Source of the DNA: a virus
Virus record (IMG/VR): IMGVR_UViG_3300050490_000084
Length of the DNA: 64,000 nucleotides
Reading direction: 5' to 3' (one strand)
Every line of letters begins with the position of its first letter. Within the stretch, counting starts at the first letter, position 1. The notes below the pieces were generated by a model. That model saw nothing but the letters and a program-made list of their open reading frames with translations. It did no database searches and had not been told where the DNA came from. Both the position numbers and the translations under genes were made by a program. This document shows, one piece after another, positions 19,620 through 54,644 of this stretch.

Positions 19620-21274
19620 GTCCCGGCTTCCGTCGGCGCCGAGCTGCCTCCACACGCTTTTTATCCGCGTTGCACCACCGACAGAGAATCTGGATCCCGG
19701 CTTCCGTCGGCGCCGAGCTGCCTCCACACACCTGGGGGAGCGACGAGAAGCCTAAGAGCAAGAAGGTCTCGGCTTCCGTCGGCGCCGAGCTGCCTCCACA
19801 CAGAGACCATCGGACTCATGCCGCGTCTGACCATCGCCGTCTCGGCTTCCGTCGGCGCCGAGCTGCCTCCACACCCTCGTGAACGCAAGGAAACGAAAAT
19901 GTCCGATTATAGTCTCGGCTTCTATCGGCGCCGAGCTGCCTCCACGCCACGCACAAGCGCGCGGACTGCTATGCGATGACATGTCTCGACTTCCATCGGC
20001 GCCGAGCTGCCTCCACACTTCGCAGAAGCGGTCAATTGCGTGGTCGCCGGACTCGTCCCGGCTTCCATCGGCGCCGAGCTGCCTCCACACGCCGTCGGGC
20101 GAGCGCCGCACGCTCTGCATCGTGAGTCCCGGCTTCCATCGGCACCGAGCTACCTCCACACGCGCTCTTTTTTATCCGCATTGCACCACCGGCAGAGAAT
20201 CTGGGTCCCGGACTTCCGTCGGCGCCGAGCTGCCTCTACACCGCGAGGAGTGACCTGCACACCCGACCTCCGGGCCCCGTCCCGGCTTCCGTCGGCGCCG
20301 AGCTGCCTCCACATCGGACCACGGCTCGGACAAACCGGTTGGGTGCTTATCGTCCCGGCTTCCGTCGGCGCCGAGCTGCCTCCACACCGGATCGTCCCCC
20401 GGCGTGGCTGCGTGTGGACTCGACCCGTCTCAGCTTCCGTCGGCGCCGAGCTGCCTCCACACTCGCGTGCACCGAACCGCGACGAATCGGAACTGCTTGT
20501 CTCAGCTTCTGCCGGCGCTGAGCTACCTCTACACAAGCGCCAGGGATCCAGGTGATTCGTCCCGGGTGTCTCGACTTCAGTAGGCGCCGAGCTGCCTCCA
20601 TACTCCTCCGCTAGGCTGCGCAAGGGGTCGTCGCGAGATCGTCGCGTCTCGGCTTCTATCGGCACCGAGCTGCCTCCACACCGCGCCGACGAGTAGGTCG
20701 CGCCCTCGCCCGCCCAGCAGTGTCTCAGTTTCCATCGGCACCGAGCTGCCTCCACACGTTCCGGTCAAAGTCCTGGCAAATGATGTACTTGAGCCGTCTC
20801 AGTTTCCATCGGCACCGAGCTGCCTCCACACGCAGGAGGACTTTCCACTCAGTCCGACGCGGGGCGGCTGTCTCAGTTTCCATCGGCACCGAGCTGCCTC
20901 CACACCGCGCTCCCTGGTGCACCTGCTCCGCCCGCACCTGTCTCAGTTTCCATCGGCACCGAGCTGCCTCCACCCCCCCCCTCACGAGCGAAGGGCTCGC
21001 GCATGACGCGACGAAGGTCTCAGTTTCCATCGGCACCGAGCTGCCTCCACACTTTCCTGCCCCCTGACGAGGTCGCTGTGCTGCATGAGTCTCAGTTTCC
21101 ATCGGCACCGAGCTGCCTCCACACACTTGGCGCAGCTGCTCCGCGTCGGCGCGCACCAGCGGCAAGGTCTCAGTTTCCATCGGCACCGAGCTGCCTCCAC
21201 ACACCCGAATCCTCGCGCATGCCGCGCTCACTGCAAATGTCTCAGTTTCCATCGGCACCGAGCTGCCTCCACAC
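19620..21274 (-). CRISPR. CRISPR array: 23 repeats (36 nt; one of 37 nt) and 22 spacers of 33-43 nt
   Basis: Minus-strand repeat GTGTGGAGGCAGCTCGGTGCCGATGGAAACTGAGAC (leader-proximal) and GTGTGGAGGCAGCTCGGCGCCGACGGAAGCCG(A/G)GAC (distal); uniform near 21274, degenerate distally. Confidence 0.98.
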
Positions 21275-21343
21275 CGGTTCAATTGTCACAGAACAATTCC
21301 GCCCACTTACCGGACGACTTGCGAGCGCCTCGAAAACTATCGC
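21275..21343 (-). promoter_or_regulatory. putative CRISPR leader
   Basis: 69-nt, AT-richer gap between the effector stop and the most uniform repeats; contains GATAGTTTTCGAGG, identical to 30622-30635. Confidence 0.55.
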
Positions 21344-22810
21344 CTACTCAGCCGCGTCGAGTAGCTGATTCTTCGCGTTATTTGCATCCTGATCCCAGGC
21401 AGCACCGCAGCTCTCGCAATCATGACGAAGCTCGCGCGCCTTGTCCCATTTGCAGAGCGCCCCACAGGCATGGCAAGTGAGCGTGCGCTTGGCGGGCTTG
21501 AGCACCTCACATCGCGCGCCGAAGACGCTCTGGATCTCTAAGCGCAAGCAATGCGGGCCCACCAAAAACCGGTAGTGCCGCGCTGCCGGAATGTCATCCT
21601 CGCTTGGTGTCCGCTTGACGACGCTCCGCATATCGAAGGCCTCGATGATGACCGAGTCATAGCTCGCGGCGAGCTTGCGCGCCCAGAGTCGATAGATCTC
21701 TCGGCGAGCGCGCAGCACGGAAGCATACTCGTCCCGCTCCCACTGGTAGAGGTGCCGATCACGGCGAGCCCAGTGCTCAGCATCCGTTCCATCTCGCTTT
21801 GCCGCTTGCTCCATCGTAAACCACTCGCGCCCGAGTTCACGGTGAATCGCGTCGGGATCCGCGAGCGCGGAGCAGCGTGCTTTTGTTCTGCGGGCGGCAT
21901 CTCCGAGGTAGGCGGCCGCGATCTCATCGGCGAGGCTCCGCAATGACTCGGCATGCTTCTGCCGCCCGAGCAGCGCATCAGGGAACACGCAACTCGTCTC
22001 GTTCCCGTCGTCGTCCACCGCGTACGCGACGCGGATGCCGCCCGGCACCCGGCGCCAGCCGAAGTTGACCGCGCAGCGGCCGAGGCCGCCCTGGGCGACG
22101 TGCACGCGCGGCGCTGCGTCGATGGTCAAATGTACGGAGTAAGTCCACCGATCTCCGATGCGATCGATCACGAGCCGCGCGAAGATCACCCGCACGTCAT
22201 AGGGCACGCCCTCCTTCTCGGCGCGCTCGGGGAGCGGCCGGTGATAAACGATGGGCACCTCAAGCGAGAGCCCCTCCCGCAACCGGAGCGTGACCGTGCG
22301 GTGCTTCCCGTCGCCCGAGATTTGCACCGGGCCCGGCTTCGTGAGCACGGCGCTTGCCTTGAGCCCGGTTGCCCCCTGCACCGTCGCTGCCAGGATCCCC
22401 TCCCCATCGAAGCGCCGGTGCCGCGGGCGCGCGCAAGTCATGACGCGCTTCAAAAAATCATAGCCCTTCTTCGAAGCCCGCTGCCGCGCCTTGAACTCAT
22501 CCGAACGCCGCGTCTTCATGGCAGCCGCCACCATCTCCGTCACGGCTTGCTTTTGGCCCCAGCCGATCGGCGTCGCGGCCCCGGCCGCGCGGCACGCGGC
22601 GTTGTAGGCCAGCCGATGCTCGGTCTTTTGCTCGTCGGAGAGCGGAGCGGATTGCGCGAGCTCGACGATGTCTCGCGCGGCGATGCGCCAGCGCTCGATC
22701 TCGATGAGCGCGTTGTAGAAGGCGTTCGAGTGGCGCTGGTACTGAAGCAGATCTTCGAAGGTGCCGCCGATGACCTTGGGTTTCAGCGCGCCGTATTTGT
22801 AAACGATCAT
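21344..22810 (-). CDS. cas12m: compact type V-M (V-U1) Cas12m-like effector, probably nuclease-deficient
   Basis: RHRRFDGEG, VYHRPLP, RuvC-I AVNFGWR (N249), RuvC-II IIE390, Zn finger C446/449/465/468, RuvC-III WDQD475; adjacent array; motifs parallel Cas12m as I recall it (RHHRFDG, ALHLGWR, YDQD). Confidence 0.85.
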   Translation of the reverse strand: MIVYKYGALKPKVIGGTFEDLLQYQRHSNAFYNALIEIERWRIAARDIVELAQSAPLSDEQKTEHRLAYNAACRAAGAATPIGWGQKQAVTEMVAAAMKTRRSDEFKARQRASKKGYDFLKRVMTCARPRHRRFDGEGILAATVQGATGLKASAVLTKPGPVQISGDGKHRTVTLRLREGLSLEVPIVYHRPLPERAEKEGVPYDVRVIFARLVIDRIGDRWTYSVHLTIDAAPRVHVAQGGLGRCAVNFGWRRVPGGIRVAYAVDDDGNETSCVFPDALLGRQKHAESLRSLADEIAAAYLGDAARRTKARCSALADPDAIHRELGREWFTMEQAAKRDGTDAEHWARRDRHLYQWERDEYASVLRARREIYRLWARKLAASYDSVIIEAFDMRSVVKRTPSEDDIPAARHYRFLVGPHCLRLEIQSVFGARCEVLKPAKRTLTCHACGALCKWDKARELRHDCESCGAAWDQDANNAKNQLLDAAE

Positions 22811-22839
22811 GATTGGTCCTATTTGCCCAAAAAGTTGCG

Positions 22840-22987
22840 GTCTCGGATTCAGTCGGCTCCGAGCTGCCTCTGCACAGATTCGTCAGCCAAAGTCCTTCGG
22901 GTCTCGGCTTCTATCGGCGCCGAGCTGCCTCAAATCTCTTCCATGACCCGGGTCTCGGCTTCTATCGGCGCCGAGCTGCCTCAAATC
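22840..22987 (-). CRISPR. 3-repeat mini-array upstream of the effector gene
   Basis: Repeats at 22840-22875, 22901-22936 and 22952-22987, same family with altered 5' ends; spacers of 25 and 15 nt. Confidence 0.85.
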
Positions 22988-23805
22988 TCTCGCCCGTCAT
23001 CGGGGATCGCTCGCACGTAGGACTCCTTCCCCGGCGTCGCCACGAAGAGCGCGAGCGTGAGCATCTCCTCGGCTGCCGGGATCGTCCAGTCATGCACGCA
23101 GAGCGGGTACCCCGCAGTCAGATCGTACAGACTCCGAAAGCTCTGGTGCGTGGGCACCCGCGATCGCACGTACTGAGGAGCGTTCCGGGAGGTGATCACG
23201 TACAGGTGCCCGGTGTCGGCGCCGCGCTGCAGGAACGATTGCTCGGCGTTGAAGTCCCTGAGCTGATCCGGATTCAGGAAGCTCCGGAGCACGCGGGTCG
23301 CGCGGTGATCGATGGCCTCGAAGTCGGGGGGCGGGCAGCCTTGCGTGGGAGCCGCGACCGTGACGGCCGCGGTCGGCTGGGGCTTCTGCTCGATCTCGGC
23401 CGCTGGCTCTTCCCGCTCAGGCTCTGCATCCAAGATCCCGGCGAGCTTTTCCGTCACCTCTTCGATGACGCCGTTCTTGTAGCGCACGACCGAGAGTAGA
23501 TCTCGACCGGGCTTCATGGGCTTCGCCAGCGCCTTCTGCACTTTGCTGATCGGTGCGCCGATGACGACCGCTTGCTCGGAGAGCGCATCGAGATCGAGCC
23601 TCTGGAGCGCTTCCTGATTACCCCACGGCGCCTTGGTCAGGCCGCTCCGCTTCGCCTCTACCTGCAAGGCTTTCATCGCCACCTTCTCGGTGGAGGACAG
23701 GCCGACGATCACGACCCGCGTCTCCCCATTGCTCACTCTCTCCAAGCGAATGTCCCCGTAGAAGCTCGGCAGATACCACGTGAGTGTCGGGCGCGGGTGA
23801 TTCAT
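22981..23805 (-). CDS. hypothetical protein
   Basis: MNHPRP start with AAGGA RBS; ends inside the first mini-array repeat. Confidence 0.65.
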   Translation of the reverse strand: MNHPRPTLTWYLPSFYGDIRLERVSNGETRVVIVGLSSTEKVAMKALQVEAKRSGLTKAPWGNQEALQRLDLDALSEQAVVIGAPISKVQKALAKPMKPGRDLLSVVRYKNGVIEEVTEKLAGILDAEPEREEPAAEIEQKPQPTAAVTVAAPTQGCPPPDFEAIDHRATRVLRSFLNPDQLRDFNAEQSFLQRGADTGHLYVITSRNAPQYVRSRVPTHQSFRSLYDLTAGYPLCVHDWTIPAAEEMLTLALFVATPGKESYVRAIPDDGREI

Positions 23806-24451
23806 TGATGTCGTCCTTTCCAATCAGATCAATGTAGGTTTCGATTTGTTTTTCGACGCGAGCGAGCAGCGTCGCATCCTTCGGGTCTTGGAGCGCCGAG
23901 CGGGCGCGGAAGAGCTCATTGAGCTCGACGTAGAGATCGAGGCGCCTCGCAGAAGGATCCTTCTCCTTCTTATGCGCCTTCTCTTTCTTCTGGTCCTCGA
24001 ACCACCCCGCCACCATCGTCAACATGTCACGCTGGAGCGTGACCATGTCGTTCGGGCGGGGCTGAAGCATGCGTCCGCCGCCGGGCAGATCAACGCCGAG
24101 GCCGTAATCGCCGACGCCATTGAGGATGGCGTAGTCCTGTTGCTCGCCGACATAGCCGTCTACTTCGCCGCCGCCCTGAGCGATGTACTGCCCCTCGGGA
24201 CCTAGGCCGCCAGCAAGCGCATTCTGATGATTCTCTTGGGCGCGGAGACGTTGGGCCTCGCGCACGCTCGTCACGAGCTCGGTCGAGATCTTCTGACCCA
24301 TCACGCACAGCCGAGAAGCGCGCCCAAAGCGCCCCGGATCGCTGCTCGCGAGCAGCGCCGTCACCGCGTCGCTCATCGCGCTCAGCACTCCGCGGAATTT
24401 CTCTTCGATGGGTGAGTGAGACGGCGGCGATGGGATCGTTTCTTCAGCCAT
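23618..24451 (-). CDS. hypothetical protein
   Basis: Long ORF; the C-terminal ~60 codons overlap the next gene. Confidence 0.6.
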   Translation of the reverse strand: MAEETIPSPPSHSPIEEKFRGVLSAMSDAVTALLASSDPGRFGRASRLCVMGQKISTELVTSVREAQRLRAQENHQNALAGGLGPEGQYIAQGGGEVDGYVGEQQDYAILNGVGDYGLGVDLPGGGRMLQPRPNDMVTLQRDMLTMVAGWFEDQKKEKAHKKEKDPSARRLDLYVELNELFRARSALQDPKDATLLARVEKQIETYIDLIGKDDINESPAPDTHVVSAELLRGHSLGESEQWGDAGRDRRPVLHREGGDESLAGRGEAERPDQGAVG

Positions 24452-24520
24452 GACAAGTCTTCTCGCGCATGACGCGCTTCAATCCGTACCTACGTTGCCC
24501 CGCCAGAAACCTTCCCCGTT

Positions 24521-24742
24521 TTACCCAGCGAGACGACCGACTTCGTGATCGATCTTCAGCTGCGCCGCGATCATCCACCTGCCGGTGTAGATCAGGAAAG
24601 CGTGCATGCGCTTCGGGTTGTTCCGGTAGCGCCGCTCGAGATCTTCTCGCGTCTCGAGAGCGAGATCTTCGATCGCCGTCCATGGCCATTCCCCGAACAT
24701 CCACTTCTCGAGCTGGATGATCTGGCCATCCCCGGTGATCAT
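24521..24742 (-). CDS. hypothetical protein
   Basis: Coupled ORF. Confidence 0.45.
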   Translation of the reverse strand: MITGDGQIIQLEKWMFGEWPWTAIEDLALETREDLERRYRNNPKRMHAFLIYTGRWMIAAQLKIDHEVGRLAG

Positions 24743-24933
24743 CGCGCGCGCGCCACCTTCGCGGGCGCCGCGTCCCGCGTGGCCCGCAGCCCCTTGATCA
24801 AGATCTCCGTGTACGGCACCGCCCGCCCTTCCGCCTCAGAGCTCTCGACCTTGCAGGCCTTCAGGTACTCGTAGTCCGGCTGCCGGAGCCGGACCGTGAT
24901 CGTGTGGTAGGGTTTCTTCGTCGCTTTCGCCAT
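24739..24933 (-). CDS. putative ribbon-helix-helix DNA-binding protein
   Basis: Alternating TITVRL strand followed by two helices (PDYEYLKAC..PYTEILIKGL). Confidence 0.5.
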   Translation of the reverse strand: MAKATKKPYHTITVRLRQPDYEYLKACKVESSEAEGRAVPYTEILIKGLRATRDAAPAKVARAR

Positions 24934-24995
24934 GCAGTCACCGTGCTATCACGATGCTAGCAGCGGATCAAGCCTTGGGGTATGAACGATCGCCC

Positions 24996-25436
24996 ATGAA
25001 TCCACAGCCAGAACAAATCTACGGCCTCTGGCACAACGGCTGGTGCGGGCTGCTTACGTCGAGGAACCCCGATAGACTCGGCTACGGCTATTCAGGGACC
25101 GAGGCCGAGGCGCGCGCGGGGCAAGAGCAGTTCGTGCTCGAAGGCGCCTCGGCTTGTGAGTACCTCGTCATGGCATTCGATCCAAACCGCGACCCTGAGA
25201 CCAAACCGGGCAAACCGTCCCCCGCGCAACTGAAATTATTGAGGTTCGTGAGTGAGCACGGGACTATCAATGCGTCGTGGGCTTCCCGTAAAACCATCGA
25301 CGTGATCTTCGATCGCGGCTGGGTGACCCACAACATCACTGCCGACGGACAAGAGGGCAGGCCCTTGCTGCGCTTCACCGCTGCGGGGCGCAGGGTTCTA
25401 GAGGCCGCCACCGGACACGCTACAGGGCCCCGCTAA
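24996..25436 (+). CDS. hypothetical protein, possible C-terminal winged helix
   Basis: SPAQLKLLRFV...TIDVIFDRGWV. Confidence 0.5.
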   Translation: MNPQPEQIYGLWHNGWCGLLTSRNPDRLGYGYSGTEAEARAGQEQFVLEGASACEYLVMAFDPNRDPETKPGKPSPAQLKLLRFVSEHGTINASWASRKTIDVIFDRGWVTHNITADGQEGRPLLRFTAAGRRVLEAATGHATGPR

Positions 25437-29202: not shown

Positions 29203-29433
29203 ATGGCGCACGTATTGCTCTTCAATAAGCGCGCGGACTCGCACAACGCCGCTCGGATCCACGACGCAGACTGCCCGCTGGTTACTGCAGCCCGTCAATC
29301 ATGCGGCGTCGTTGCCGTCATCGAAAGCGACGCGGTCGCCGAGGCAATCAAAGACCTCACCGAGCGCGATTGGCCCGTCAAAGCTTGCCGCTGCACCAAG
29401 GGCTCAACATCCTCCGCTGCCATCGCTCGCTGA
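29203..29433 (+). CDS. small Cys/His protein
   Basis: IHDADCP...CRC. Confidence 0.5.
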   Translation: MAHVLLFNKRADSHNAARIHDADCPLVTAARQSCGVVAVIESDAVAEAIKDLTERDWPVKACRCTKGSTSSAAIAR

Positions 29434-29959
29434 GCGTCTCTCTCGCCACCTTCATGATCTGGCTCACCCGAGCTGCGGTGACTCCGAGCTCTTTCGCGAT
29501 CTCTGGCTGGATCTTGCCATCGACCGAATGCCGCATCGCGACCCGCTGCTGACGCGGCAGCGTCTCAATGGCATCATCGAGCCAGCGCAGGCGCGCGTGC
29601 TGATCGAGATCTTCTTCAATGTTGAGCGCGACCGTGTACTGCCGAATGGTCTCGGTCGTACTGAAGCCATCGGCATGCAAGATCTGCCACAGCTTGCCGA
29701 AGCTTTTTCGGGCGCGGCGTGGGAAGTCATCGCGCGCCCGGAGATCGTCGATGATGGCCCCTCGGATCCGCACGATGGCCACCGCCTCGAACTCCGCCTC
29801 CGGAAGCCGGTGGTGACGAAGCGCCGCATCCCACAGGCCCCCGAGCGCGACCGTCTGGATCTCGATCGCTTCGACCGATTGCGGCAGCTTCCTCAGGTAG
29901 CCAAGGGCGATGCGATGAGCCAAATCTCGGTATTGCTCGAAGGCCTCACCGGGCGTCAT
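29378..29959 (-). CDS. sigma70-family factor, FliA/WhiG-like regions 2 and 4
   Basis: ALGGLWDAA..FEAVAIVRIRGAIIDDLR (region 2); LPRQQR..QPEIAKELGVTAARVSQI (region 4 HTH). Confidence 0.85.
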   Translation of the reverse strand: MTPGEAFEQYRDLAHRIALGYLRKLPQSVEAIEIQTVALGGLWDAALRHHRLPEAEFEAVAIVRIRGAIIDDLRARDDFPRRARKSFGKLWQILHADGFSTTETIRQYTVALNIEEDLDQHARLRWLDDAIETLPRQQRVAMRHSVDGKIQPEIAKELGVTAARVSQIMKVARETLSERWQRRMLSPWCSGKL

Positions 29960-30566
29960 CCTTCGATCCAGATCGTGAGGGGAGGAGCGCCCAAGCGCCT
30001 GCGCCGACGACGACGGCAGAGGTCGCCGCCCAAGGCAGCACCGAATCACCTGAGCGCGATGCGAGGAACGGCTCGACCGAATAAAACGCCGCTACGGCGG
30101 ACTTCGGCACGATGCTCGCACTGACGGCGCCGCCCGTACCATTGCCGTTGATCAGCGAGACGAGATCGCCCTGCACGCCGATCACGACCGCTTGGTGCTG
30201 GTTGTGGTCGAAGTAAGCGATGTCCCCAGGCTGGGGATTGTTTGTGGTCGGGAAATCGTAGAGGAAGCCCGTGCCAATAATCCACGGACGGTTTTTCAGG
30301 ATCCCCGCCTGGTGCAGCGCCCACAGCGCAAACGCTCCGCACCAGTCCTTCGGCCAGCCGTCGGGCGGCACGCCAGGGAGTACGTTCTGCCAGTAGGGGG
30401 CGGCGCTCGCGCGGCCGAGCTCGGCTTGGGCGTACTGAGCGATGCGGAGCCGCGCTGGCGCGGGCCAGAAGGCCCAGACGCTGAGCGAGGCACCGAGCAC
30501 GCTGAGCGCGGTCAGAGCCCAGCCCGCGGGGCTCTTCGGGAAGATCTTCGGGAGCGTGACGGGCAT
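29946..30566 (-). CDS. CHAP/NlpC-P60-type peptidoglycan hydrolase with N- and C-terminal TM segments
   Basis: DWCGAFALWAL, PQPGDIAYF..HQAVV, LINGN. Confidence 0.8.
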   Translation of the reverse strand: MPVTLPKIFPKSPAGWALTALSVLGASLSVWAFWPAPARLRIAQYAQAELGRASAAPYWQNVLPGVPPDGWPKDWCGAFALWALHQAGILKNRPWIIGTGFLYDFPTTNNPQPGDIAYFDHNQHQAVVIGVQGDLVSLINGNGTGGAVSASIVPKSAVAAFYSVEPFLASRSGDSVLPWAATSAVVVGAGAWALLPSRSGSKDDAR

Positions 30567-34392: not shown

Positions 34393-35136
34393 TCAGGTCG
34401 GTTGCAAGATCAGATTGAACTGCGTGACCGTCAGGTTGGCGGAGGCCGAACGATTTCGCAGAGCGGCGAAGAAGGTCGTGCCGACGCCCATGACCTGCGG
34501 CTTTTGCGTCGACACCTGAGCGCCCAAGGCGGCTGTGGTCGTATCGGTCGTCGTGCGACCGGCTGAACCAACGAAGGTTGTCGCTCCGATGACGGAGTCC
34601 GCGCCGCTCATCAGGGCAAACTCCACCACCTGACCCGCGGTGGCCGTCGCGACCGTGATCTCTGCCGTCGCAATGAACTGCGCGAGCGCCGGACCCGAGT
34701 ACGTGTACACGCCCGTCGTGGTATTGAGCGACCAGTACGCGCCGGTGTTGCCGGTGACGTAGAAGTTGGTGCCTGACGGGAGACCGATCCAAGTGTCCTG
34801 CGTCACGGCAAACGAACTCGACCCCTGGAGGGCCGCCGTGCCGAGCGCTTGCCCGAGTCGCGGGTCGAGCGCGGTGCCACCCGAAACGAAGAGCCAGCGG
34901 CCTGGCCCCGAGAGTGGCGTGACGACCGAGCCATCGGCGGTTTGGACCGTGGTCGAGTCGGTTTTCTTCAGGCGGTAGGAGCCGCCGTTCGAGATCACGA
35001 AGGCGAGGGCGCCGTTCGGGAGCTGGGCGGTGTTGACGCCGTCGAGGGAGTCAGCCGGACCGGTAGAATCGACCACGCCGAGGGACCCGACGATGATATC
35101 TCGGAGAGCGACGGCAGCACGTTGGGTATTGGACAT
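34393..35136 (-). CDS. fibre/spike-like protein: shared N-module plus beta-rich head
   Basis: DSLDGVNTAQLPNGALAFV...PLSGPGRW module. Confidence 0.65.
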   Translation of the reverse strand: MSNTQRAAVALRDIIVGSLGVVDSTGPADSLDGVNTAQLPNGALAFVISNGGSYRLKKTDSTTVQTADGSVVTPLSGPGRWLFVSGGTALDPRLGQALGTAALQGSSSFAVTQDTWIGLPSGTNFYVTGNTGAYWSLNTTTGVYTYSGPALAQFIATAEITVATATAGQVVEFALMSGADSVIGATTFVGSAGRTTTDTTTAALGAQVSTQKPQVMGVGTTFFAALRNRSASANLTVTQFNLILQPT

Positions 35137-35176: not shown

Positions 35177-35226
35177 ATCCTGCCCGACAATGCCTCAGGG
35201 GCGCAACTTTTTGGGCCGAGAGGGGT
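35177..35226 (-). promoter_or_regulatory. A-tract sigma70-like promoter; 24-bp block identical to 44815-44838
   Basis: AAAAAG-TTGCGC-N18-CAGGAT. Confidence 0.55.
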
Positions 35227-41024: not shown

Positions 41025-41058
41025 AAGCTACCCGGATCCCGAATCCGAAGCAACTTTT
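41025..41058 (-). promoter_or_regulatory. A-tract sigma70-like promoter
   Basis: AAAAG-TTGCTT-N17-TAGCTT. Confidence 0.55.
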
Positions 41059-41753
41059 CGGGCCATGAGGCGCTGGCGATCTTGAATCTTTCGCTCGGTC
41101 AGCGGGCGCGCCTGCGACGAGCTCACGGGGGCCGGACCCCCGCGAGCGGCCGGATAGTGCGGCAGCAGCAAGCGCCGGAGTTTGCCGATCGCGCGCTTTT
41201 CGATCTGCCGGATGCGCTCGCGGGAAATGTCCCAGTCGAGGGCAATCGACTCGAAGGTGCGCTCCTCGACGAAGCGCTGCTCGATCACGTAGCGCTCGCG
41301 GGGCGAGAGCTGACCGAGCACCTGACCGATGAGGGCTTCCGCCTCGGTCGTCTCCAGGCGCGCATCCGGCGCCGGAAGCTCGGTACGGATTTGACGCCGC
41401 GACTCCCCGAAATCGTCCTCTTCGTCCATACTGGAGACGATCCCCTGCCGCTTCTTGCTTCGACCCGTGCGACGGAGCAACTCGAAGCGGTGCATGAGCG
41501 AGATATACGCGTACGTCTTGAAACTAGCGCCACCGTCTTCTCGGTAGGTCATCGTACTCTTCCAGACCGTCAGCTGACCCATCGCGACGATGTCATCGTA
41601 GTCATAGAAGCGCGCGAGCTTCCGGGCGTATTGACCAGCCACGTGCCGCACGAGCGGCAAGTACTGCTTGAGCAGCACGAGGCGCTCGGCATACGAGCGC
41701 GCGGGAAGCTCCGCTTCCGGAGAAGCGCATTCAGCAAGGGCACGAGCGGACAT
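41028..41753 (-). CDS. sigma70-family factor (regions 2 and 4)
   Basis: YLPLVRHVA..DDIVAMGQLTVWKS..ASFKTYA; LSPRERYVIEQRF...ISRERIRQIEKRAIGKLR. Confidence 0.88.
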   Translation of the reverse strand: MSARALAECASPEAELPARSYAERLVLLKQYLPLVRHVAGQYARKLARFYDYDDIVAMGQLTVWKSTMTYREDGGASFKTYAYISLMHRFELLRRTGRSKKRQGIVSSMDEEDDFGESRRQIRTELPAPDARLETTEAEALIGQVLGQLSPRERYVIEQRFVEERTFESIALDWDISRERIRQIEKRAIGKLRRLLLPHYPAARGGPAPVSSSQARPLTERKIQDRQRLMARKVASDSGSG

Positions 41754-43277: not shown

Positions 43278-44054
43278 TCAGGGTTTGGGCGGGACCGGGT
43301 AGGGATCCCGCGGTTGCACGATGTGAGTGCCCGTCACCTTGTGAGGATCGACGAGCGGGGAAGGGTAGAAGCGAAGCGGGTCGCGGGGAGGCGTGCCGGG
43401 GGGGTCGTCGATCTTCACGCTGGCTGCTCGCTCCAGTACGTCCGTCACCCAGCTCCGTACGTCCAGGTTGTAGCGGTAGTCTTCGTTGCGATCGTCCGAG
43501 CGCTGCTTGGCTTCAGCCTCGATGTGCGCGTCGATCTTCTTGTCGGTCTTGGCGAGCGATGTCTCGAGCGCTTCGAAGTGCTTGAGCACCTCGGGGCTCG
43601 GCTTTTGCGCGTTGATGATCATCGCGATGAGCCCCGTCAGGGCCACGACGAATGCGGCGACGTACTGGAGGTGGCTCCATTCAAACTTCTTTTTCACCTC
43701 AGGCAGAGGCGGCGGCGGGCAGCTCTTCACCTCGTGCACGACGAGCTTTCGGAGCTCCGAGCGGAGCTGGGCCTCGAAGGCGCGCTGGCGCTCGACCTGC
43801 CGCTCCTCTTCTTCCTCCCGCTTGTCGGAGATCTCGGCCAGCATGCGGCCTTCGGTCGCAGCGATGGCGCTCAAGAGCGCTTGGTGCGGATCGAGGGCAG
43901 AGGCGGGGACCTTGGGGGCCTTCAGCGCCATGCGGGCGATGGGCTCGCCCTTGATGGTGTGGGCGGGGAGCGCCCGGTACACGCCGGGTGGCGGATCTTC
44001 GCCGCGATCGTGAGGGGGGAGCGTCGGGCGGGAGCGCTTGGGATCATCAGCCAC
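43278..44054 (-). CDS. single-TM coiled-coil protein
   Basis: YVAAFVVALTGLIAMII TM between coiled coils. Confidence 0.6.
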   Translation of the reverse strand: MADDPKRSRPTLPPHDRGEDPPPGVYRALPAHTIKGEPIARMALKAPKVPASALDPHQALLSAIAATEGRMLAEISDKREEEEERQVERQRAFEAQLRSELRKLVVHEVKSCPPPPLPEVKKKFEWSHLQYVAAFVVALTGLIAMIINAQKPSPEVLKHFEALETSLAKTDKKIDAHIEAEAKQRSDDRNEDYRYNLDVRSWVTDVLERAASVKIDDPPGTPPRDPLRFYPSPLVDPHKVTGTHIVQPRDPYPVPPKP

Positions 44055-44439
44055 GGCGGCGCCTCGCTTCGCGCAGGATGACGCGGCGGATGAGCCCCGG
44101 ATCCATGTCCTTGGTCAACACGCGGACACCGGCCTCGAGCACGATCTGGGAGTCGGGCAGGCCCGTGAAGAGCAGGCGGGGCAAGTCCGGGTAGAGCCGC
44201 CCGACTTCTCCCAGGAATGCGATGCCGTGCATGCCGCGCATCCAGTAGTCTGCAACGACGAGATCGACCGACTGTCGAGCGAGCAAATCGAGGGCGTGCA
44301 GACCCGATGACGCGGTCAGAATGACGATGGGCTCACGAGCAAAGAACCTTCGGAAAGTCGACAGAGCTGTCTCTTCGTCGTCCACGAAGAGCACGACGGG
44401 ATCACTGGGGCTGGGTCCCTCGGATCGCGTGATCGTCAT
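44047..44439 (-). CDS. stand-alone response-regulator receiver (REC) domain
   Basis: VLFVDDE, DLVVADYWMRGMHG, LFTG, LTK. Confidence 0.88.
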   Translation of the reverse strand: MTITRSEGPSPSDPVVLFVDDEETALSTFRRFFAREPIVILTASSGLHALDLLARQSVDLVVADYWMRGMHGIAFLGEVGRLYPDLPRLLFTGLPDSQIVLEAGVRVLTKDMDPGLIRRVILREARRRRG

Positions 44440-44788: not shown

Positions 44789-44838
44789 AATCTACCGGAG
44801 GGGTGGGGCGCCCAGCAACTTTTTGGGCCGAGAGGGGT
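44789..44838 (-). promoter_or_regulatory. A-tract sigma70-like promoter; 24-bp block identical to 35203-35226
   Basis: AAAAAG-TTGCTG-N18-TAGATT. Confidence 0.6.
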
Positions 44839-46319: not shown

Positions 46320-47738
46320 TCACGCGGGAATCCCCGAGGGCAGCAGGCCTGCGCGATCGGGGTTATTAGGGAATGTCACTGTCTCTTCGAGCACGAAGGT
46401 CGTCTGCGAGAGGATCACGTCTGCTGACACCGCTCCGGACGCAAGCAAACTGGCGGCCGGGATACGTATCAACTTAGTACTAAACACGCCACACACCCAA
46501 AGGTTGCCCGATGCGTCAAAGGCAATGCTGAGGGAGTTCGAGAAATCCGAGCAGGTGATCGTCACTACGGGCGCCGGGTTTCCACTCGACGGGCTTCGAA
46601 TATCCCAAGCCTTCAGGGTGTTGCTACGGAGGCTCGCCACCCAAAGCAGACCCGCGGGCGAGATGGCGGCGCCGGAAGTATGCCCCACGCCTCCCGCGCC
46701 CGCACCGAAGTTCGAGCCGCTCCAGACAACTACTGGCGCTACCGCCGCGCCGCCCGCGGCCAGTTGCGATGCGCTAAACATCACTACCCCACCGTTGACC
46801 CCGCCCGCGTCTCCGCTAAATCCGATCGTGCACCACAGGTTGCCCTGTCCATCCAAAACCCCGTCTTGTTGGTTTGACGTAGTGAGGGGAGCAATCGATC
46901 CCGCAACGAGGGTGGTGCTCGGCGTGCCGAGACTCAGCTGGTAGTCCCGTTGCCCATACCGCACCAAGCTCGTCACGCCTGACGCTCCGTGAGTCCCGTT
47001 ACCCACCCACAACCCATTCAACTTGTCGAAGAAGGCCATCAGCGCCTCGCTCGAGGCAGGCACCGGCACACTCAGCGTCACCGATGGGACAATGGCGCCA
47101 GAGGCCAGGCAATCCTTCAGCAGGAATTTGTATGCCTTGATGACCGTGAATCCGGTATTGCGCGCCACTACCCAAAGGTTGCCCAGGCTATCGGTGATGA
47201 TCCTCAGATCATCGGTGCCAAATAACACATGGGCGTCCAGCTGAATGTCGGGCAACGCTCCGCTGCTCACGGCTAATTGCCCAGGGGTAAATCCGACGAC
47301 GCCAAACCCAAACGATGTACACCACAGCGTGAAGTTCCCGACGACGTATTCTTTGCTTCTCCGAAACCATCGTCCGCCGCCAAGCGCCGCGACGATGAGC
47401 GGAGAGCTCACCACGAAGGTATTGGCCGTGTCGAGTCGATACGACTCGGCTTGATCGAGCACGTACACGGTGGCGCCGTTCGGGGAGTTGGGGACGAGCT
47501 CGAGCGCGGCAAGATCGGCGACGACTTGCGTGCCCGTCGCCCCTTGAAAACCTTGGCTGCCCTGCGCGCCCTGGAAACCCTGCGCGCCGATTACCCCTTG
47601 GACTCCTTGTGCACCCGTCGACCCCTGGAAGCCCTGGGCTCCTCGGGCGCCTTGTGCGCCTTGAGATCCCGCTGCTGCGGGCGGCGGCACGCGGGGAGTG
47701 CCGCGTGCAGAAGCGCCCAATTTCGAGCGGATGGTCAT
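46320..47738 (-). CDS. tandem paralog of 44894-46300 (collagen + beta-propeller)
   Basis: Near-identical first ~135 aa, diverged propeller. Confidence 0.75.
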   Translation of the reverse strand: MTIRSKLGASARGTPRVPPPAAAGSQGAQGARGAQGFQGSTGAQGVQGVIGAQGFQGAQGSQGFQGATGTQVVADLAALELVPNSPNGATVYVLDQAESYRLDTANTFVVSSPLIVAALGGGRWFRRSKEYVVGNFTLWCTSFGFGVVGFTPGQLAVSSGALPDIQLDAHVLFGTDDLRIITDSLGNLWVVARNTGFTVIKAYKFLLKDCLASGAIVPSVTLSVPVPASSEALMAFFDKLNGLWVGNGTHGASGVTSLVRYGQRDYQLSLGTPSTTLVAGSIAPLTTSNQQDGVLDGQGNLWCTIGFSGDAGGVNGGVVMFSASQLAAGGAAVAPVVVWSGSNFGAGAGGVGHTSGAAISPAGLLWVASLRSNTLKAWDIRSPSSGNPAPVVTITCSDFSNSLSIAFDASGNLWVCGVFSTKLIRIPAASLLASGAVSADVILSQTTFVLEETVTFPNNPDRAGLLPSGIPA

Positions 47739-47808
47739 GATGGGTCGGACTCCGAGAACATGGGTCTGCCTGTCTCGACCCTCCTGACGACCGGTCTAGT
47801 TGCGCCGA

Positions 47809-47842
47809 ATCCTACATGAGCTGGCAAACATGCCGCAACTTT
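47809..47842 (-). promoter_or_regulatory. sigma70-like promoter
   Basis: AAAG-TTGCGG-N18-TAGGAT. Confidence 0.5.
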
Positions 47843-48302: not shown

Positions 48303-48633
48303 CGATCGTGGTCGAGTATTGAATCGGCGCGACCCCGTCGCACTCGCACACGAAGGAATCCTGAGCGATGGCCAATGGGGGCGTCCCCGGCAGCAGCGTC
48401 GCGAGCGATTGCGTCACGACGACGGCGTTGTCGCCCTTGGACAGGATGTTGGCCGTGATTTGGGATGCAGAGTCAGTACCGGTCGTGATCGCGAGCGCGA
48501 GTGAGACACGGTAGAGGCCCTTGACCGGCGTGACGAGCGTTGTCGTCGCGATCGCAGCCGTCTGGGCTTTCAGGTAGAGATTCGCGACGCGCCCGATGGG
48601 GAGCGTCCACGGGCCAGCTCGAAGATCGCTCAT
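48235..48633 (-). CDS. small beta-rich virion-like protein
   Basis: Thr-rich beta-strand pattern; coupled to the fibre gene. Confidence 0.55.
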
Positions 48634-51600
48634 GACAGGTTCTGGGCTCCGACGTAGATGATGCTCAAGAGATCTTCAGAGGCTTGGAAGAAGTAGCGGG
48701 CGGGTACGTCCGTGCTAAGGATCGCCTTCAGCGTGACGGACGCAAACTGCACCGTGAGCGTGTGGCCGTTCGTGCCGTAGACATCGATCGGCAGGAGATC
48801 GAGGGCAGCGGCGCCGGTGAGGCTCAGCTGGATGATGCGGTCGGCGGTGAGGGTCGGTATGGCGAGGTAGAGCCGATCGGCCGTATTGAAGGTGTAGGTG
48901 GTGGCCGAGTCGAGCAGCTGCTGAGCGTTTGGTTCGATCTGATCGAGCGAGACGATCGGCGAGAGCGTGGCGGTGACTGAGGCTTGGCCGTTGCCCGACG
49001 AGAACAAGCTCCGCTCGCTCATCGCGTCGAGCTGGAGGCCCATCGTCGAGCCACCGAGGTTCACGCGGCCGGAGGTCTTCGGGCCGAAGATCGTGTTTCG
49101 GCAATTGAAGACCGCCCAGTTGGCGCTGACCGAATGCGAGGTCGTTGCGACCGTACCGATCTTGCAGTTCGTGAGAAAGAGCTGCGGAGATCCGGTGGAG
49201 GAGGTGATGTCCACGTCGATCGTGCAGTTCGTGAGGCGGTTGATGGCGGCCACGCCCGCGGGCGCCGTGATGCCTTGCTGGAAATAGCAGCCGTCACAGA
49301 GCAGCGGGCCGGCGGTCACCGTGTCGACAAAGCGACAATAGTTGAAGGTATGCGGCGTCGCTTCGCCGGCGGACGCCTGCGAATTCGAGAAGGTCGCGTT
49401 CACGTACACGTACTCGCCAAACACCTGCGAGCAGAGCGAGATCTCGGCCGTGCTCATGCCATCCAAGCGAGCAACAGGCAGCACCGAGCTCATGCGAAGG
49501 ACGGTGTTCGAGGCGCCTGATCCCGATCCCGAGATCGCTCCTGCCTGCACGTCGATGAGCTGGATGTTCGACTGGACGGAGGAGGCGTCGATGATCGAGT
49601 TGGTCGTGCAGTTTTGCAGGGTGAGGGTGAAGCCCGCCGTCGTCGTGAAGGTGAGGTTCACGAAGGAAAAGGCGACCGTCTGATCCGTCGGTCCGCAGAG
49701 CCCGATGAGCGTCACATCGCGCGCGGTGTTGATCGTCCAACCTCCGTAGTTTCCGGGAGCAACGAGCAGCGTGATGGCGCCGGTCGGGTGCGCCGCGAGC
49801 GCGGCGGTCGGCGTCGCGTACGGCTGCTGAATCGATCCAGTCGCTGTGCCGAGGTTGTTCGAGTCGACGTAGAAGACCTGGAAAAGCGGACCGACTGTGG
49901 TCGATCCCTGAAAGCCCTGCGTGCCCGTTGCGCCCTGGAAACCCTGCGCGCCGCGCGCGCCTTGGAAGCCCTGCGCGCCCTGAAAACCGCTCCCTTGGAA
50001 GCCCTGCACGCCCGTTGCGCCCTGGAAACCCTGCGCGCCTTGACGGCCCTGCGATCCCTGCGCGCCGCCGGCGCCGAGACCGCCCTGAAAACCCTGCGGA
50101 CCCGTGGCCCCGGTTGCGCCCTGCGCGCCGGTCGTGCCCGTGTTGCCGGTCGCACCCTGCGCGCCTTGCACACCGGTCGTACCTGTATTGCCTGTCGCAC
50201 CTTGTCGACCTTGCGCGCCCTGGAAACCCTGCGCGCCGGTCGCGCCTTGCGCGCCCTGCGATCCCGAGCCCGTTGCGCCTTGGAAGCCCTGCGCGCCGGT
50301 GGTGCCGGTTGAGCCCTGAGCACCTTGAGATCCTGCGCCCGTGGCACCCTGGAAACCCTGCGTGCCGGTTGCGCCTTGGGCGCCTTGGCTGCCTGCGCCG
50401 GTGGCGCCTTGCGCGCCTTGTGATCCCTGCGCGCCCGCGCCCGCTTGCGCGCCTTGTGCGCCTTGAAATCCGCCGCCCTGGAAGCCTTGGGCTCCCTGAA
50501 AGCCTTGCGCGCCCGCTGCGGCTTGCGCACCTTGGGCGCCCTGAAAGCCGCCGCCCTGGAAACCCTGCGCGCCTTGCGATCCGGTGGCGCCCTGCGCGCC
50601 CGTCGATCCCTGAAAGCCGCCACCCTGGCGACCCTGTGCACCTTGAAAGCCCTGCGTGCCCGTCGCACCCTGGGCGCCTTGCGTGCCGGCACCCGTCGCG
50701 CCTTGCGCGCCTTGGTTGCCTTGCGTGCCGGTTGCACCCTGAAAGCCGCCGCCTTGAAAGCCTTGGGCGCCAGTCGTACCCGTTGCGCCCTGCGCGCCTT
50801 GACGGCCCTGCGATCCCTGCGCGCCGCCGCCATTTTGGCCCTGAAAGCCCTGCGCGCCTTGCGTCCCGGTTGCGCCCTGGGCGCCTTGAGATCCCGTCGT
50901 GCCGGAGGTGCCTGCGGCACCTTGGAAGCCCTGCGCGCCGGTCGCACCCGGCGCGCCTTGGGCGCCTTGTGCGCCGCTGCCGCCGACGGTCTGCGGCGCG
51001 TAACCCGGCAGCGAGTCGAGCCAGGTGAGCACCTGCAAGTTCTGGGCGCCTGCTCGCTGGATGCCGGTCGGATCGACATCGTTGCGAATCGTGAGCGTCG
51101 CTCCAGCCGCCAGGGTGATGCCACTCGCGCCGCCCGCGGACGCGTGCGAAAACCCATCCATCACGATCGATCCCGGACCTGTAAAGGTGGGATTGACCGT
51201 AAACAAGCAGTCGGTGAAGATCGCAGCGCCGCCGCCGAGGGAGATGCCTGCGACGCCGAATCGGCTTCCGAAAAATTGCGTCGCGACCGACGTAAACGAA
51301 ACGGTCGATCCGAACGTGTATCCTCGACAAAGAATCTGACCTGCGACCGTCACCGCACCCGAGAGCTGGCCGCCAAAGCCAAAGAAGGTGTCGCCGGCAC
51401 CACGCATCGGCACGAACCACGCCCCCGAACCGGTCCTCGTGAGCGTAGTCGTGCCGGTCACGATCGTATTCGTGAGGTAAAGGAAATTCCCGGACGAGCT
51501 CGTGGCGTCACCACTCACTGTTCCTGAGACAATCAGATTCGTGAGACGGTATTGAGACTGCACCGTCGAAGTCGCGATGACGTTTCCGGAGATCGTTGCG

Positions 51601-52988
51601 CGAGCGATGGACTGGCACTGAAGCTCCCAGTTGCCTGGCGGAAAAATGACGGTCTCCGTCGTCGTCGTTTCAGGCGCCTGGATGATGAGGCAGCCGCCAG
51701 CAGGGGCCGCCGCGAATGTCGCCGCGTAGCTCGGGTAAGGCGCCGACTGCGTGCCATTGGAAGTCCCAACGAACGTCGGGTCCATGTACAGTGTGTTCTT
51801 GAACGGATCGCCGATCGATTGCGCACCTTGAAGCCCTTGGGCACCCTGCGCACCTTGGAAGCCCTGCGTTCCCGTGGCTCCCTGCGCGCCTTGGGCTCCT
51901 TGAGCGCCGCCGGACGCGCCTTGCGATCCCGTTGATCCCTGCGCGCCCTGAAAGCCTGCGCCCTGCGTGCCCTGCGCGCCTTGGTTACCCTGCGCGCCCT
52001 GGAAACCCTGGCTGCCCTGTGCACCGCCGCTCGGACCTTGCGGACCGGTCGCGCCCTGGGCGCCGGTGATGGCTTGGCCTTGAAAGCCCTGCGCGCCCTG
52101 GAAGCCCTGGCTGCCTTGTGATCCCTGCGTGCCCGACGCGCCTTGCGCGCCCTGACTCCCCGATCCCTGGTTGCCTTGAGCACCGGTCGACCCTTGCGAT
52201 CCCTGGTTGCCCTGTGACCCAGTTGCGCCCTGAGATCCCACCGCGCCCTGCGCGCCTTGATTCCCTTGCGACCCCTGCGCGCCCGTGGTGCCCGTCGCGC
52301 CCTGTGATCCTTGCGCGCCGGTGGCCCCTTGTGCGCCTTGTCGGCCCTGCGCTCCTTGAAAGCCTGCCCCCTGAGCACCTTGCGCACCCTGAGATCCGGT
52401 CGTCCCCGTCGCCCCTTGAGCGCCCTGGGCGCCGCCGCCCGAGCCTTGCGCGCCCGTCGACCCCTGTGCACCCTGAAAGCCCGCACCCTGCGTGCCTTGG
52501 GCACCCTGAAAGCCTTGGCTTCCGGTCGCACCTTGCGCGCCCTGCGCGCCGCCGCTCGGGCCTTGCGGACCGGTCGCGCCCTGCGCGCCCGTGACCGCTT
52601 GACCTTGAAAGCCCTGCGCACCTTGGGCGCCCTGCGATCCCTGGCTCCCCGTCCCGCCTTGAGATCCCTGGCTTCCGGATCCGGTCGCGCCTTGGCTGCC
52701 CTGCGCGCCCTGGGCTCCTTGTCGACCCTGCGCGCCCTGGAGGCCTTGCGCGCCGCCCGTGCTCGGCACCCAGCGGCCGGGGCCCGAGATCGGCTTGACG
52801 ACATTCGGGGGGGAAGGAGGAGACGTGTCGGACTTGTGGAGCTCATAGTGCTTGAGCTGATCTTCGACGTACGCGAGGCATCCATCGTCGAGCACCGAAG
52901 TGCTGACATTTTCCAGGGAATCGCCCAGGCCGAGGAGGGTTGCTACGGCTCCAATATTTCTGCTGGCCACGCTGGATCGATCGGTCAT
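48630..52988 (-). CDS. 1452-aa collagen-like fibre protein with two collagen stalks and two beta-helix-like heads
   Basis: Two long Gly-X-Y tracts, each followed by a (L/F)Y(M/V)D...G(T/S)...PY motif; shared N-module. Confidence 0.85.
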
Positions 52989-53074: not shown

Positions 53075-53109
53075 AGCCTACCCCGCCCCTGGCCCGGGCC
53101 TCAAGTTTT
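53075..53109 (-). promoter_or_regulatory. A-tract sigma70-like promoter
   Basis: AAAAAC-TTGAGG-N18-TAGGCT. Confidence 0.55.
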
Positions 53110-53149
53110 TGAGTTGAAGATCGCGAGATCGCTCTGGCAGAGTGCCCCG

Positions 53150-53767: not shown

Positions 53768-53937
53768 AGTACTCCGTGACACGCGTGGTTGAGATCGCCC
53801 GAGCGATCGAGAAATTCATCGACAATTGTCCCTTCTCCGAAAGCGAGAAGGATCTGATCCCGCTCGCTCTCCGAGCGCTTGCCGATGAGTACGAGATGTA
53901 CCTGTCTTCTGCTCTCACCAAGGACCCTGACCGATGA
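53764..53937 (+). CDS. small hypothetical protein
   Basis: ATGA coupling at both ends. Confidence 0.5.
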   Translation: MKYSVTRVVEIARAIEKFIDNCPFSESEKDLIPLALRALADEYEMYLSSALTKDPDR

Positions 53938-54644
53938 AGACCGTCATCTACACCGCGTGCTTCGGCGACCATGACCAGCCGGCTGAGCTGCCAGGCTTCG
54001 AGGGCAAGGCCGATCTCGTTTGCTTCACCGACTCGCCGACGCTCGCGCGCGAGCGGAAGACCTGGCAGGTGATTCGGAGGCGCTCGCGCTTCAAGACCGC
54101 TCGCATGGATGCCAAATGGTACAAGATGAGCGCGAGCCATTTGTTCCCCGAGCATGAGCTGTCGATCTACATCGACTCGAGCGTGCGCTTCCACAAGACG
54201 GAGGGGTTCCTCGAGCACTGCATCGAAGCGCTCCGGGTATCTGGCGCGCGCTTGGCGTTCTATCAGCATCCTGAGGGGCAGCGCACAATCCTGCAAGAGG
54301 CGGAGTTTTCGATGACGATGAGCAAATACATCGGCGAGCCGCTCATCGAGCAGGCCCGGCACTACTACTCATCCGGCTACCGCGATTCGGAGTTGCTCGC
54401 GGGTGGGTGCATCGTGCGCGACCAGGCAACCTGTCACCTCGACAACACTGAGCGCTGCAACTACCCACACGACGTAGCCCGCTTCGAGAAGGCGTGGTTC
54501 GATGAATGCGTGCACTGGTCGGCGCAAGATCAAATCTCGCTTCCGTATGTGCTCAGTAGCGAGCACATCGACTACGCAGTGCTCCCCGGCAGCATCTACG
54601 AAAACGAGTTCTTCAGCCGCGTCTGGTCGGGACCCGACCGTTAA
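53934..54644 (+). CDS. DUF616/TOD1-MUCI70-like glycosyltransferase
   Basis: VIYTACFGDHD, CFTD, SIYIDSS, DQISLPYV. Confidence 0.75.
   Translation: MKTVIYTACFGDHDQPAELPGFEGKADLVCFTDSPTLARERKTWQVIRRRSRFKTARMDAKWYKMSASHLFPEHELSIYIDSSVRFHKTEGFLEHCIEALRVSGARLAFYQHPEGQRTILQEAEFSMTMSKYIGEPLIEQARHYYSSGYRDSELLAGGCIVRDQATCHLDNTERCNYPHDVARFEKAWFDECVHWSAQDQISLPYVLSSEHIDYAVLPGSIYENEFFSRVWSGPDR

Follow-up and report, generated by a model that had tools for sequence, protein, structure and literature searches.

A repeat mini-array ahead of a phage cas12m gene may carry a guide against the phage's own promoters

Can a phage turn a CRISPR effector on its own genes? The question is raised by a 64,000-nucleotide (nt) stretch (the window) of the IMG/VR virus record IMGVR_UViG_3300050490_000084, in which three CRISPR-type repeats stand ahead of a cas12m gene and the sequence following the last of them, where a guide would lie, is a copy of a block from the phage's own promoters. 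The window comprises bases 6136-70135 of a 135,429-bp record that carries direct terminal repeats, is rated 100% complete and has a G+C content of about 64%; coordinates are those of the window unless marked "genome". The phage (G000) is a soil phage that occurs in rhizosphere metagenomes, and searches of GenBank phages and of bacterial genomes returned no close relative. Among its relatives, IMGVR_UViG_3300048892_000198 is designated G001 (locus L009), and L041 and L015 denote the same locus. We propose that this phage may use CRISPR to switch off its own genes, with the copied block acting as a functional guide on a promoter family that we term class A, a reading that we consider a distinct possibility, somewhat short of an even chance.

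The mini-array, listed in the direction of cas12m transcription, consists of the following parts.

22952-22987, minus strand: repeat R1, scoring 55.1 bits with the covariance model, with a degenerate 5' end
22937-22951, minus strand: spacer-like segment 1, 15 nt
22901-22936, minus strand: repeat R2, identical to R1 and belonging to a 42-nt duplication
22876-22900, minus strand: spacer-like segment 2, 25 nt
22840-22875, minus strand: repeat R3, with the invariant handle positions all present (55.8 bits, E 1.8e-12)
22825-22839, minus strand: guide-position 15-mer CGCAACTTTTTGGGC, the first 15 nt after R3 and the reverse complement of the class-A A-tract/-35 block
22811-22824, minus strand: remainder of the post-repeat segment, with the ribosome-binding site (RBS) AGGA at 22817-22820 just ahead of the cas12m ATG at 22808-22810

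The three repeats and the 15- and 25-nt spacers that an initial annotation had described upstream of cas12m are thus present at 22840-22987 on the minus strand. The 3' handle part of these repeats is conserved and the five bases at the 5' end are degenerate; within the degenerate 5' end of R1 sits the stop codon of the upstream open reading frame (ORF; 22981-23823). The stem of R3 shows a compensatory change (CTCGGA/TCCGAG versus CTCGGC/GCCGAG), and its score falls inside the range of the main-array repeats, 43.7-62.1 bits. Genome-wide, the covariance model finds 26 repeats, 23 in the main array and three in the mini-array, and no others. Judged by sequence, the mini-array repeats are intact CRISPR RNA (crRNA) handles, and the promoter-block copy occupies exactly the guide position after R3. 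From R3 to the cas12m ATG the distance is 29 nt (22811-22839), of which 22811-22824 has its homologue in the sequence around the RBS in relatives without a mini-array. For the 15- and 25-nt mini-array spacers, a target search returned only chance-level seeds of 9-11 nt in coding DNA, and folding of the leader RNA, in the window and in the relative L014, revealed nothing beyond the repeat hairpins (z ~0). No Rfam family was matched in a scan of the window.

The class-A promoter unit reads, on the minus strand, CYCRAAAAGTTGM, then 19-20 nt, a TAGGCT-like -10 and an ORF. The genome holds ten such units, those beyond the window lying at genome 387, 109261 and 119940 and at window-numbered 64222. 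The 15-mer CGCAACTTTTTGGGC matches 35202-35216 at 15/15 (19/22 extended), 44814-44828 at 14/15, 41049-41063 at 13/15, 59088-59102 at 12/15 and 47834-47842 at 9/9. These sites had been said to overlap the A-tract/-35 half of promoters, and each was found on the minus strand with a TAGGCT-like -10 at 19-20 nt, followed by an ORF start. Allowing up to three mismatches, the 15-mer has five matches against 1.57 expected from shuffles, a number that 2 of 100 shuffles reach; its 12-mer core has eight against 2.17 expected, reached by none of 100 shuffles. The genome is repeat-rich, with 6% of random 29-nt windows having some 15-mer elsewhere, so the guide match is to be read as true homology to a repeated element and not as an improbable coincidence. 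The units within the window to which the guide was compared are these.

35177-35216, minus strand: P35203, block 35203-35215 and -10 CAGGAT at 35177-35182, ahead of the fibre-like ORF 34393-35136
44789-44828, minus strand: P44815, block 44815-44827 and -10 TAGATT, ahead of an operon in which a receiver-domain protein (44047-44439) and a sigma factor (41028-41753) are encoded
41025-41063, minus strand: P41050, block 41050-41062 and -10 TAGCTT, with the ATG 7 nt past the -10 (leaderless mRNA)
59063-59102, minus strand: P59089, ahead of the collagen-like tail-fibre gene 56684-58969
53075-53114, minus strand: P53101, ahead of the 1452-amino-acid collagen-like ORF 48630-52988, with a weak guide match (11/17)
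47800-47842, minus strand: P47842, a promoter-like unit (TTGCGG, 18 nt, TAGGAT) ahead of the fibre-like ORF 46320-47738

In three class-A units the mRNA would be leaderless, with the ATG 7-9 nt past the -10, which is good positional evidence for promoters. As far as sequence alone can tell, the matched sites are real promoter -35/upstream (UP) blocks. By their codon-position G+C pattern, the real genes at 32-64 kb lie on the minus strand. Downstream of the class-A units we found fibre genes, the sigma/receiver operon, genes of unknown function and, outside the window, one for a transglutaminase-like protein; none of them could be identified as lysis-like, and the lysis-like operons of the initial annotation are not borne out. 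The copy at 22825-22839 is itself inverted relative to cas12m and is not followed by a -10, the absence that had been noted for 22825-22840. An antisense promoter at 22825-22839 was ruled out, as neither the window nor L014 has a -10 at a distance of 16-21 nt. Reading the T-run as a sense promoter or an intrinsic terminator was likewise rejected: the U-tract lies 8-10 nt from the stem, and the promoter identity would be left unexplained. Across four mapped DNA sequencing runs, no variation was listed at guide or target sites. Two sigma-70-family factors are encoded by the phage, at 41028-41753 and 29378-30049 (both minus strand). A second promoter-like class, GGAAG-N16/17-CGTA, is frequent in its genome; leaderless ORFs arise from several units of the two classes, and a class-A promoter precedes the operon that contains one of the sigma genes.

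The effector, the main array and the presumed promoter of the operon have the following positions.

21344-22810, minus strand: cas12m, 488 amino acids, with RuvC residues N249-E390-D475 and a CCCC zinc finger
19620-21274, minus strand: main CRISPR array, 23 repeats (36 nt) separated by 33-44-nt spacers, just downstream of cas12m
24491-24515, minus strand: GGAAG-N16-CGTA promoter-like element, the nearest of its kind, two ORFs upstream of the mini-array

The cas12m product aligns with the PDB Cas12m chain 23vw_A over residues 178-483 (E 3.8e-36) and matches the PADLOC model of Cas12u1, formerly V-U1 (5.2e-48); in Pfam it gives a weak TNB match only. N249 aligns with the RuvC-I Asp of 23vw_A, and this Asn is invariant in 20 homologues; E390, D475 and the four zinc-finger cysteines are retained in the Cas12m alignment. 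N-E-D RuvC triads have been listed for Cas12m clades 3 and 4 (PMC10442227). Sequence, RuvC triad and array assign the locus to type V-M, and we infer from the N-E-D triad and the behaviour of the family that this Cas12m binds DNA without cutting it. In the repeat stem, four of six pairs are changed on both sides, and 92.9% of cells are paired versus 18-39% with a slid partner; the second repeat helix changes from GGC/GCC to GGG/CCC in L009 and L013 (alignment A3). The repeats thereby match the two-helix crRNA handle described for PmCas12m (bioRxiv 10.64898/2026.03.26.714355). The main array is a mix of repeat variants, with stems CTCGGT/ACTGAG, CTCGGC/GCCGAG and CTCGGC/GCCGGG, and its spacers 18 and 25 are near-duplicates (34/39). 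Its leader (21275-21343, minus strand) holds a TAGTTT box immediately after the cas12m stop codon and, directly ahead of the first repeat, a conserved GTTCTGTGACAAYT shared with L009. The element at 24491-24515 probably drives an operon of the two ORFs, the mini-array and cas12m. A generic sigma-70 promoter scan of 21000-25200 returned none, and the phage's own motif classes proved more informative. Neither the guide nor either short spacer matches the 24491-24515 promoter region or the array leader.

How well the guide would pair depends on the site. P35203 is the only one with full seed pairing, over 15 nt from guide position 1, and has the 5' flank GGG. P44815 pairs at 14/15 (14/17) with a mismatch at position 1 and the flank CCC; the two flanks are those that the initial annotation had itself named as a weakness for not being TTN. 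P41050 pairs at 13/15 (14/17), with mismatches at positions 1, 11 and 16 and the flank CGA, and P59089 at 12/15 (12/17) with the flank GGC. Shorter runs from position 1 are found at P47842 (9 nt, flank TGC) and at the genome-109261 promoter (10 nt, flank CTT). Characterised Cas12m proteins recognise protospacer-adjacent motifs (PAMs) that are TTN, YTN or otherwise T- or C-rich (PMC10442227, PMC11013384, bioRxiv 10.64898/2026.03.26.714355). For PmCas12m, a 17-nt guide and 17-bp heteroduplex are optimal, and any single mismatch up to 12 nt from the PAM abolishes activity (bioRxiv 10.64898/2026.03.26.714355).

Flanks used within this phage group were collected from its own spacers. Seven protospacers were recovered, too few to define a PAM; their 5' flanks are CCG, CGT, TGC, ATC, CGA/CGT, YTC and CGG, with a pyrimidine at -3 in six of the seven and no TTN. 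Protospacers of the main array were not found among GenBank phages, nor in two spacer scans of IMG/VR. Spacer matches indicate that phages of this group target one another. Array spacers of L026, L015 and L014 match G000 at 33-35 of 36-38 nt, at genome 60069-60103 (window 53934-53968), genome 120619, 84576 and 123543, and one relative's match begins exactly at the ATG of ORF 53934-54644. Spacer 8 of the main array (20906-20939) matches a gene of its own phage at 12282-12315 (30/35, mismatches at positions 7 and 10, flank CGT) and matches L011 better (32/35, flank CGA). A G001 spacer (L009:7794-7831) finds its match in cas12m, on the antisense strand of the conserved N-terminal region (window 22674-22701), at 36/39 in its own cas12m and 31-34/39 in every relative including that of the window, with 5' flanks CTC or TTC; it could reflect targeting of rival cas genes or another route of autoregulation.

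Leader repeats are confined to the closest clade. L014 (85% Cas12m identity), L015/L041 (86%) and L028 (86%) have two each, and L026 has a solitary one ahead of an apparently frameshifted cas12m. In that 131.8-kb relative, cas12m is called as two ORFs (L026:9519-10984; 172 and 327 amino acids), through a frameshift or a sequencing error. Homologues with up to 79% Cas12m identity (G001/L009, L011, L013, L027, L029, L042) have no mini-array, and in such relatives GGAAG-N17-CGTA stands directly before the cas12m ATG. The same element lies just upstream of the leader repeats in L014 and L026, indicating that there the cas12m transcript begins with the repeats. In every phage with a mini-array or solitary repeat, the last repeat ends 22-38 nt ahead of the ATG, whatever the intervening sequence.

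L014 is the sole relative that shares the guide motif. Its mini-array is built differently, from two repeats, yet it keeps CGCAACTTTTTGG: the 13-nt motif is the same in the window and in L014 without a mismatch, whereas the 17 nt from there to the ATG agree at 12/17 and the mini-array spacers are unrelated. The L014 post-repeat segment starts TCCGCAACTTTTTGGAAATGG, and its homologue of P35203 (L174:7661) reads TCCAAAAAGTTGCG, a 14/14 match. Guide and promoter thus covary, with GGGC in both for the window and GGA in both for L014; as this is a single covarying position, it is suggestive only. In the true register (TCCGCAAC...), the first 12 nt of the L014 guide pair with G001's counterpart of the genome-109261 promoter, which has the flank TCC; L014's own copy lies outside its contig. 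Under a guide model, the L014 homologue of that promoter should read ...TCC TCCGCAACTTTTTGG. We sought this homologue through the downstream protein and found many relatives, none of which could be linked to the L014 genome. Further guide-bearing relatives were sought by protein and alignment searches of IMG/VR (two loci, no mini-array), in JGI metagenomes (10 loci, with a mini-array only in L041) and in bacterial genomes (none). A 14-mer scan of IMG/VR returned at least 119 stretches, and in none among the matches listed does a repeat precede the motif.

Taken together, these observations permit a mechanism to be outlined. The three repeats would form a crRNA-like module in the cas12m 5' leader, co-transcribed with the two upstream ORFs from the promoter at 24515, as the layout suggests. 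Covariation and model scores indicate that every repeat retains the pseudoknotted handle that Cas12m would grip, and the leader would be bound and processed by Cas12m. The last unit would then yield an RNA of handle plus guide, the first 15 nt of which are complementary in sequence to the class-A A-tract/-35 block. Cas12m carrying this RNA would sit on that block and exclude RNA polymerase. The realistic target set is narrower than first proposed, with P35203, the promoter of the fibre-like operon, as the fully paired site; at P44815, P41050 and the genome-109261 promoter the seed mismatches would leave any effect weak. With the RBS and ATG placed 20-32 nt into the "guide", the cas12m start would also be hidden by this binding event, giving negative feedback. 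In its fullest form, the proposal is that in this 135-kb soil phage of virulent type a leader guide and a non-cutting Cas12m govern part of the phage's own transcription by acting on sigma-dependent -35/UP blocks of fibre and sigma-factor operons, and that occupation of the leader throttles cas12m translation, coupling the amount of Cas12m to the silencing of a promoter class; this complete circuit we put forward tentatively, as possible but doubtful. By sequence alone, the DNA targets may be the phage's own promoters or the near-identical promoters of co-infecting relatives.

In favour of a working guide, the match begins directly behind the repeat, with no gap, and extends over 15 nt, and no part of a promoter suits a roadblock better than a -35/UP block. 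The exact placement, an intact handle, the kind of site that is targeted, a family that binds without cutting, retention in L014 and the precedent of degenerate mini-arrays that direct Cas effectors to promoters (PMC10120712; bioRxiv 10.1101/2023.03.10.532045) all count in the same direction. Several observations weigh against it. The GGG flank of P35203 resembles none of the seven recovered protospacer flanks, the other sites (44814, 41049, 59088) mismatch at guide position 1 and/or 11, and sites with plausible flanks have seed mismatches; if the enzyme behaves like PmCas12m, P35203 would be the sole full target, with a flank unlike the known ones. In L014 the motif begins 2 nt past the repeat end, so that its own known promoter would mismatch at guide positions 1-2. 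The post-repeat sequences of L015/L041, L028 and L026 are unrelated and have no match in the DNA searched. Finally, the block also recurs in G001, which lacks a mini-array: eight promoter-like sites there have it, and several are clear homologues of sites in the window. Since the block is equally conserved in this guide-less phage, it must be conserved for a reason other than the guide; it is read by something else, plausibly a phage sigma factor, and the guide is a derived copy of a promoter block.

The RNA-guided promoter repression put forward in the initial annotation therefore survives in part: the N-E-D Cas12m, the handles, the guide position, the real -35/UP targets and L014 support it, and the seed mismatches, the GGG flank, the three relatives with unrelated segments and the block in G001 do not. 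Its idea that one guide co-represses several promoters is doubtful, as only 35202 pairs from position 1, and nothing was found in support of a late or lysis-lysogeny switch. Pairing is likewise conserved only in part among related phages, in L014 with its own promoter variant and not in L015, L028 or L026.

What else could account for the locus? Cas12m might act on its own leader in cis alone, binding the handle in its mRNA, processing that mRNA away from the upstream ORFs and, since the RBS and ATG lie in the guide channel, limiting its own translation, with the 15-mer having no target in trans. All five phages with leader repeats place the last one 22-38 nt before the ATG, and this common layout of handle, some 20-30 nt, RBS and ATG argues for a general role of leader repeats in cis. 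It also fits that in L026 and L014 the transcript would start with the repeats, that in the window the upstream stop codon inside R1 leaves no room for a promoter, and that it is the 3' handle part that is kept. Left unexplained, however, are a sequence that sits precisely at the repeat boundary and equals a promoter block at 15/15 (19/22), and the survival of the motif in L014 despite its changed mini-array. As the whole explanation, control in cis is somewhat unlikely; in the form of cas12m mRNA processing and feedback on translation, it is either a strong rival or an additional function, compatible with a guide and able to coexist with one acting in trans in the window and L014. The segment might instead be a truncated immunity spacer, a weapon against the class-A block of co-infecting relatives, with the phage's own perfectly paired promoter tolerated for want of a PAM and its other copies through seed mismatches. 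The mutual targeting described above (L026, L015 and L014 against G000, a G000 spacer against L011, and a G001 spacer against the cas12m of all relatives) makes such a use conceivable, the block is common to relatives, G001 offers sites with 12- and 10-nt leads and the flanks CGC and CTC, and the self sites look just as tolerated self-matches should. Yet only 15 nt are left, compared with the 33-44-nt spacers of the main array, the segment lies in the degenerate leader array and not in the main one, and the claim that self lacks a PAM is a supposition; we regard this origin as unlikely.

Decay of an older array end, or a recombination scar, could also have left a promoter fragment that has no present function. 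The abnormally short spacers (15 and 25 nt) and the recent 42-nt duplication that made R1 and R2 would suit such a relic, as would a mini-array that is limited to the closest clade (Cas12m identity of at least 85%), differs in make-up in each member and is dispensable to relatives that do well without it. Intact handles with compensatory changes and model scores equal to those of working repeats argue otherwise, as does the perfect 13-nt motif shared with L014 amid diverged neighbours (12/17 in the adjacent 17 nt, unrelated mini-array spacers), and a relic is quite unlikely. Very unlikely, in our estimate, is that the 15-mer works as DNA, as a half-promoter or operator for sigma holoenzyme or an activator, serving as a decoy or roadblock before cas12m with no RNA guide. 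Conservation of the block in guide-less G001 does mean that a protein very probably reads it, the phage has two sigma-70-family factors to do so, and the 2-nt register shift in L014 would be irrelevant at the DNA level. Sigma factors need both promoter elements, however, and no -10 follows in the window or L014; moreover, the 15-mer has the opposite orientation to cas12m and is bounded by the repeat end, and no other isolated half-sites were found in the genome.

It is known that cas genes can be tuned by regulatory mini-arrays and that mini-arrays of phages hijack the Cas proteins of their hosts. If the guide reading is true, what would be new is a phage that acts on its own promoter family with a self-encoded, binding-only Cas12m and a guide embedded in the leader: a natural CRISPR interference (CRISPRi) circuit for viral genes, and a compact one, needing an effector of 488 amino acids, a handle of 36 nt and about 15-17 nt of guide. 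If only the role in cis is true, an mRNA that starts with the crRNA handle of the effector it encodes, its RBS hidden in the guide channel, would still be a neat feedback design. In either case, the locus offers material for working out the PAM and mismatch rules of the N-E-D Cas12m clade.

The closest known systems are the CreR/crlRNA mini-arrays of types I-B, I-E, I-F and V-A (PMC10120712, bioRxiv 10.1101/2023.03.10.532045), which resemble this locus in having degenerate, handle-keeping repeats beside a cas gene, a short spacer-like segment with limited complementarity to a promoter (here 15 PAM-proximal nt at P35203) and a Cas effector acting as a repressor and not as a nuclease, as is proposed here. 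In the known cases the target is either the neighbouring promoter of the cas operon itself or a toxin gene, next to a cognate PAM. By contrast, the matches here are dispersed phage promoters 12-36 kb away with no consistent PAM, the promoter of the cas12m operon is unmatched, and the guide segment also holds the cas12m RBS and start. As the target is not the cas promoter, one defining feature of CreR/crlRNA, autoregulation or a linked toxin, is lacking. The characterised type V-M proteins (MmCas12m, Cas12m2, GoCas12m and PmCas12m; PMC10442227, PMC11013384, bioRxiv 10.64898/2026.03.26.714355) belong by sequence to the same family and share the non-canonical RuvC, the CCCC zinc finger, the two-helix crRNA handle and the lack of adaptation genes. 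They silence by binding, through a heteroduplex of about 17 bp. The protein described here differs in its length (488 versus about 580-610 amino acids), in being phage-borne and in protospacer flanks that are not TTN/YTN, and that literature describes no leader mini-array for characterised Cas12m loci. TldR (bioRxiv 10.1101/2023.11.30.569447) is likewise an RNA-guided promoter repressor of the RuvC family that has no cleavage activity, uses a short guide and is in some cases prophage-borne; its scaffold is an omega-RNA from the 3' end of the gene and not a CRISPR repeat, and its targets are host genes beside a target-adjacent motif (TAM). Virus-borne mini-CRISPR arrays and phage crlRNAs (Medvedeva 2019, as cited in PMC10120712; bioRxiv 10.1101/2024.10.29.618823) also place one to three repeats with short guides in viral genomes. 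Those arrays use host Cas proteins against rival viruses or against host cas and immune promoters, whereas the mini-array described here would pair the phage's own effector with its own promoter family.

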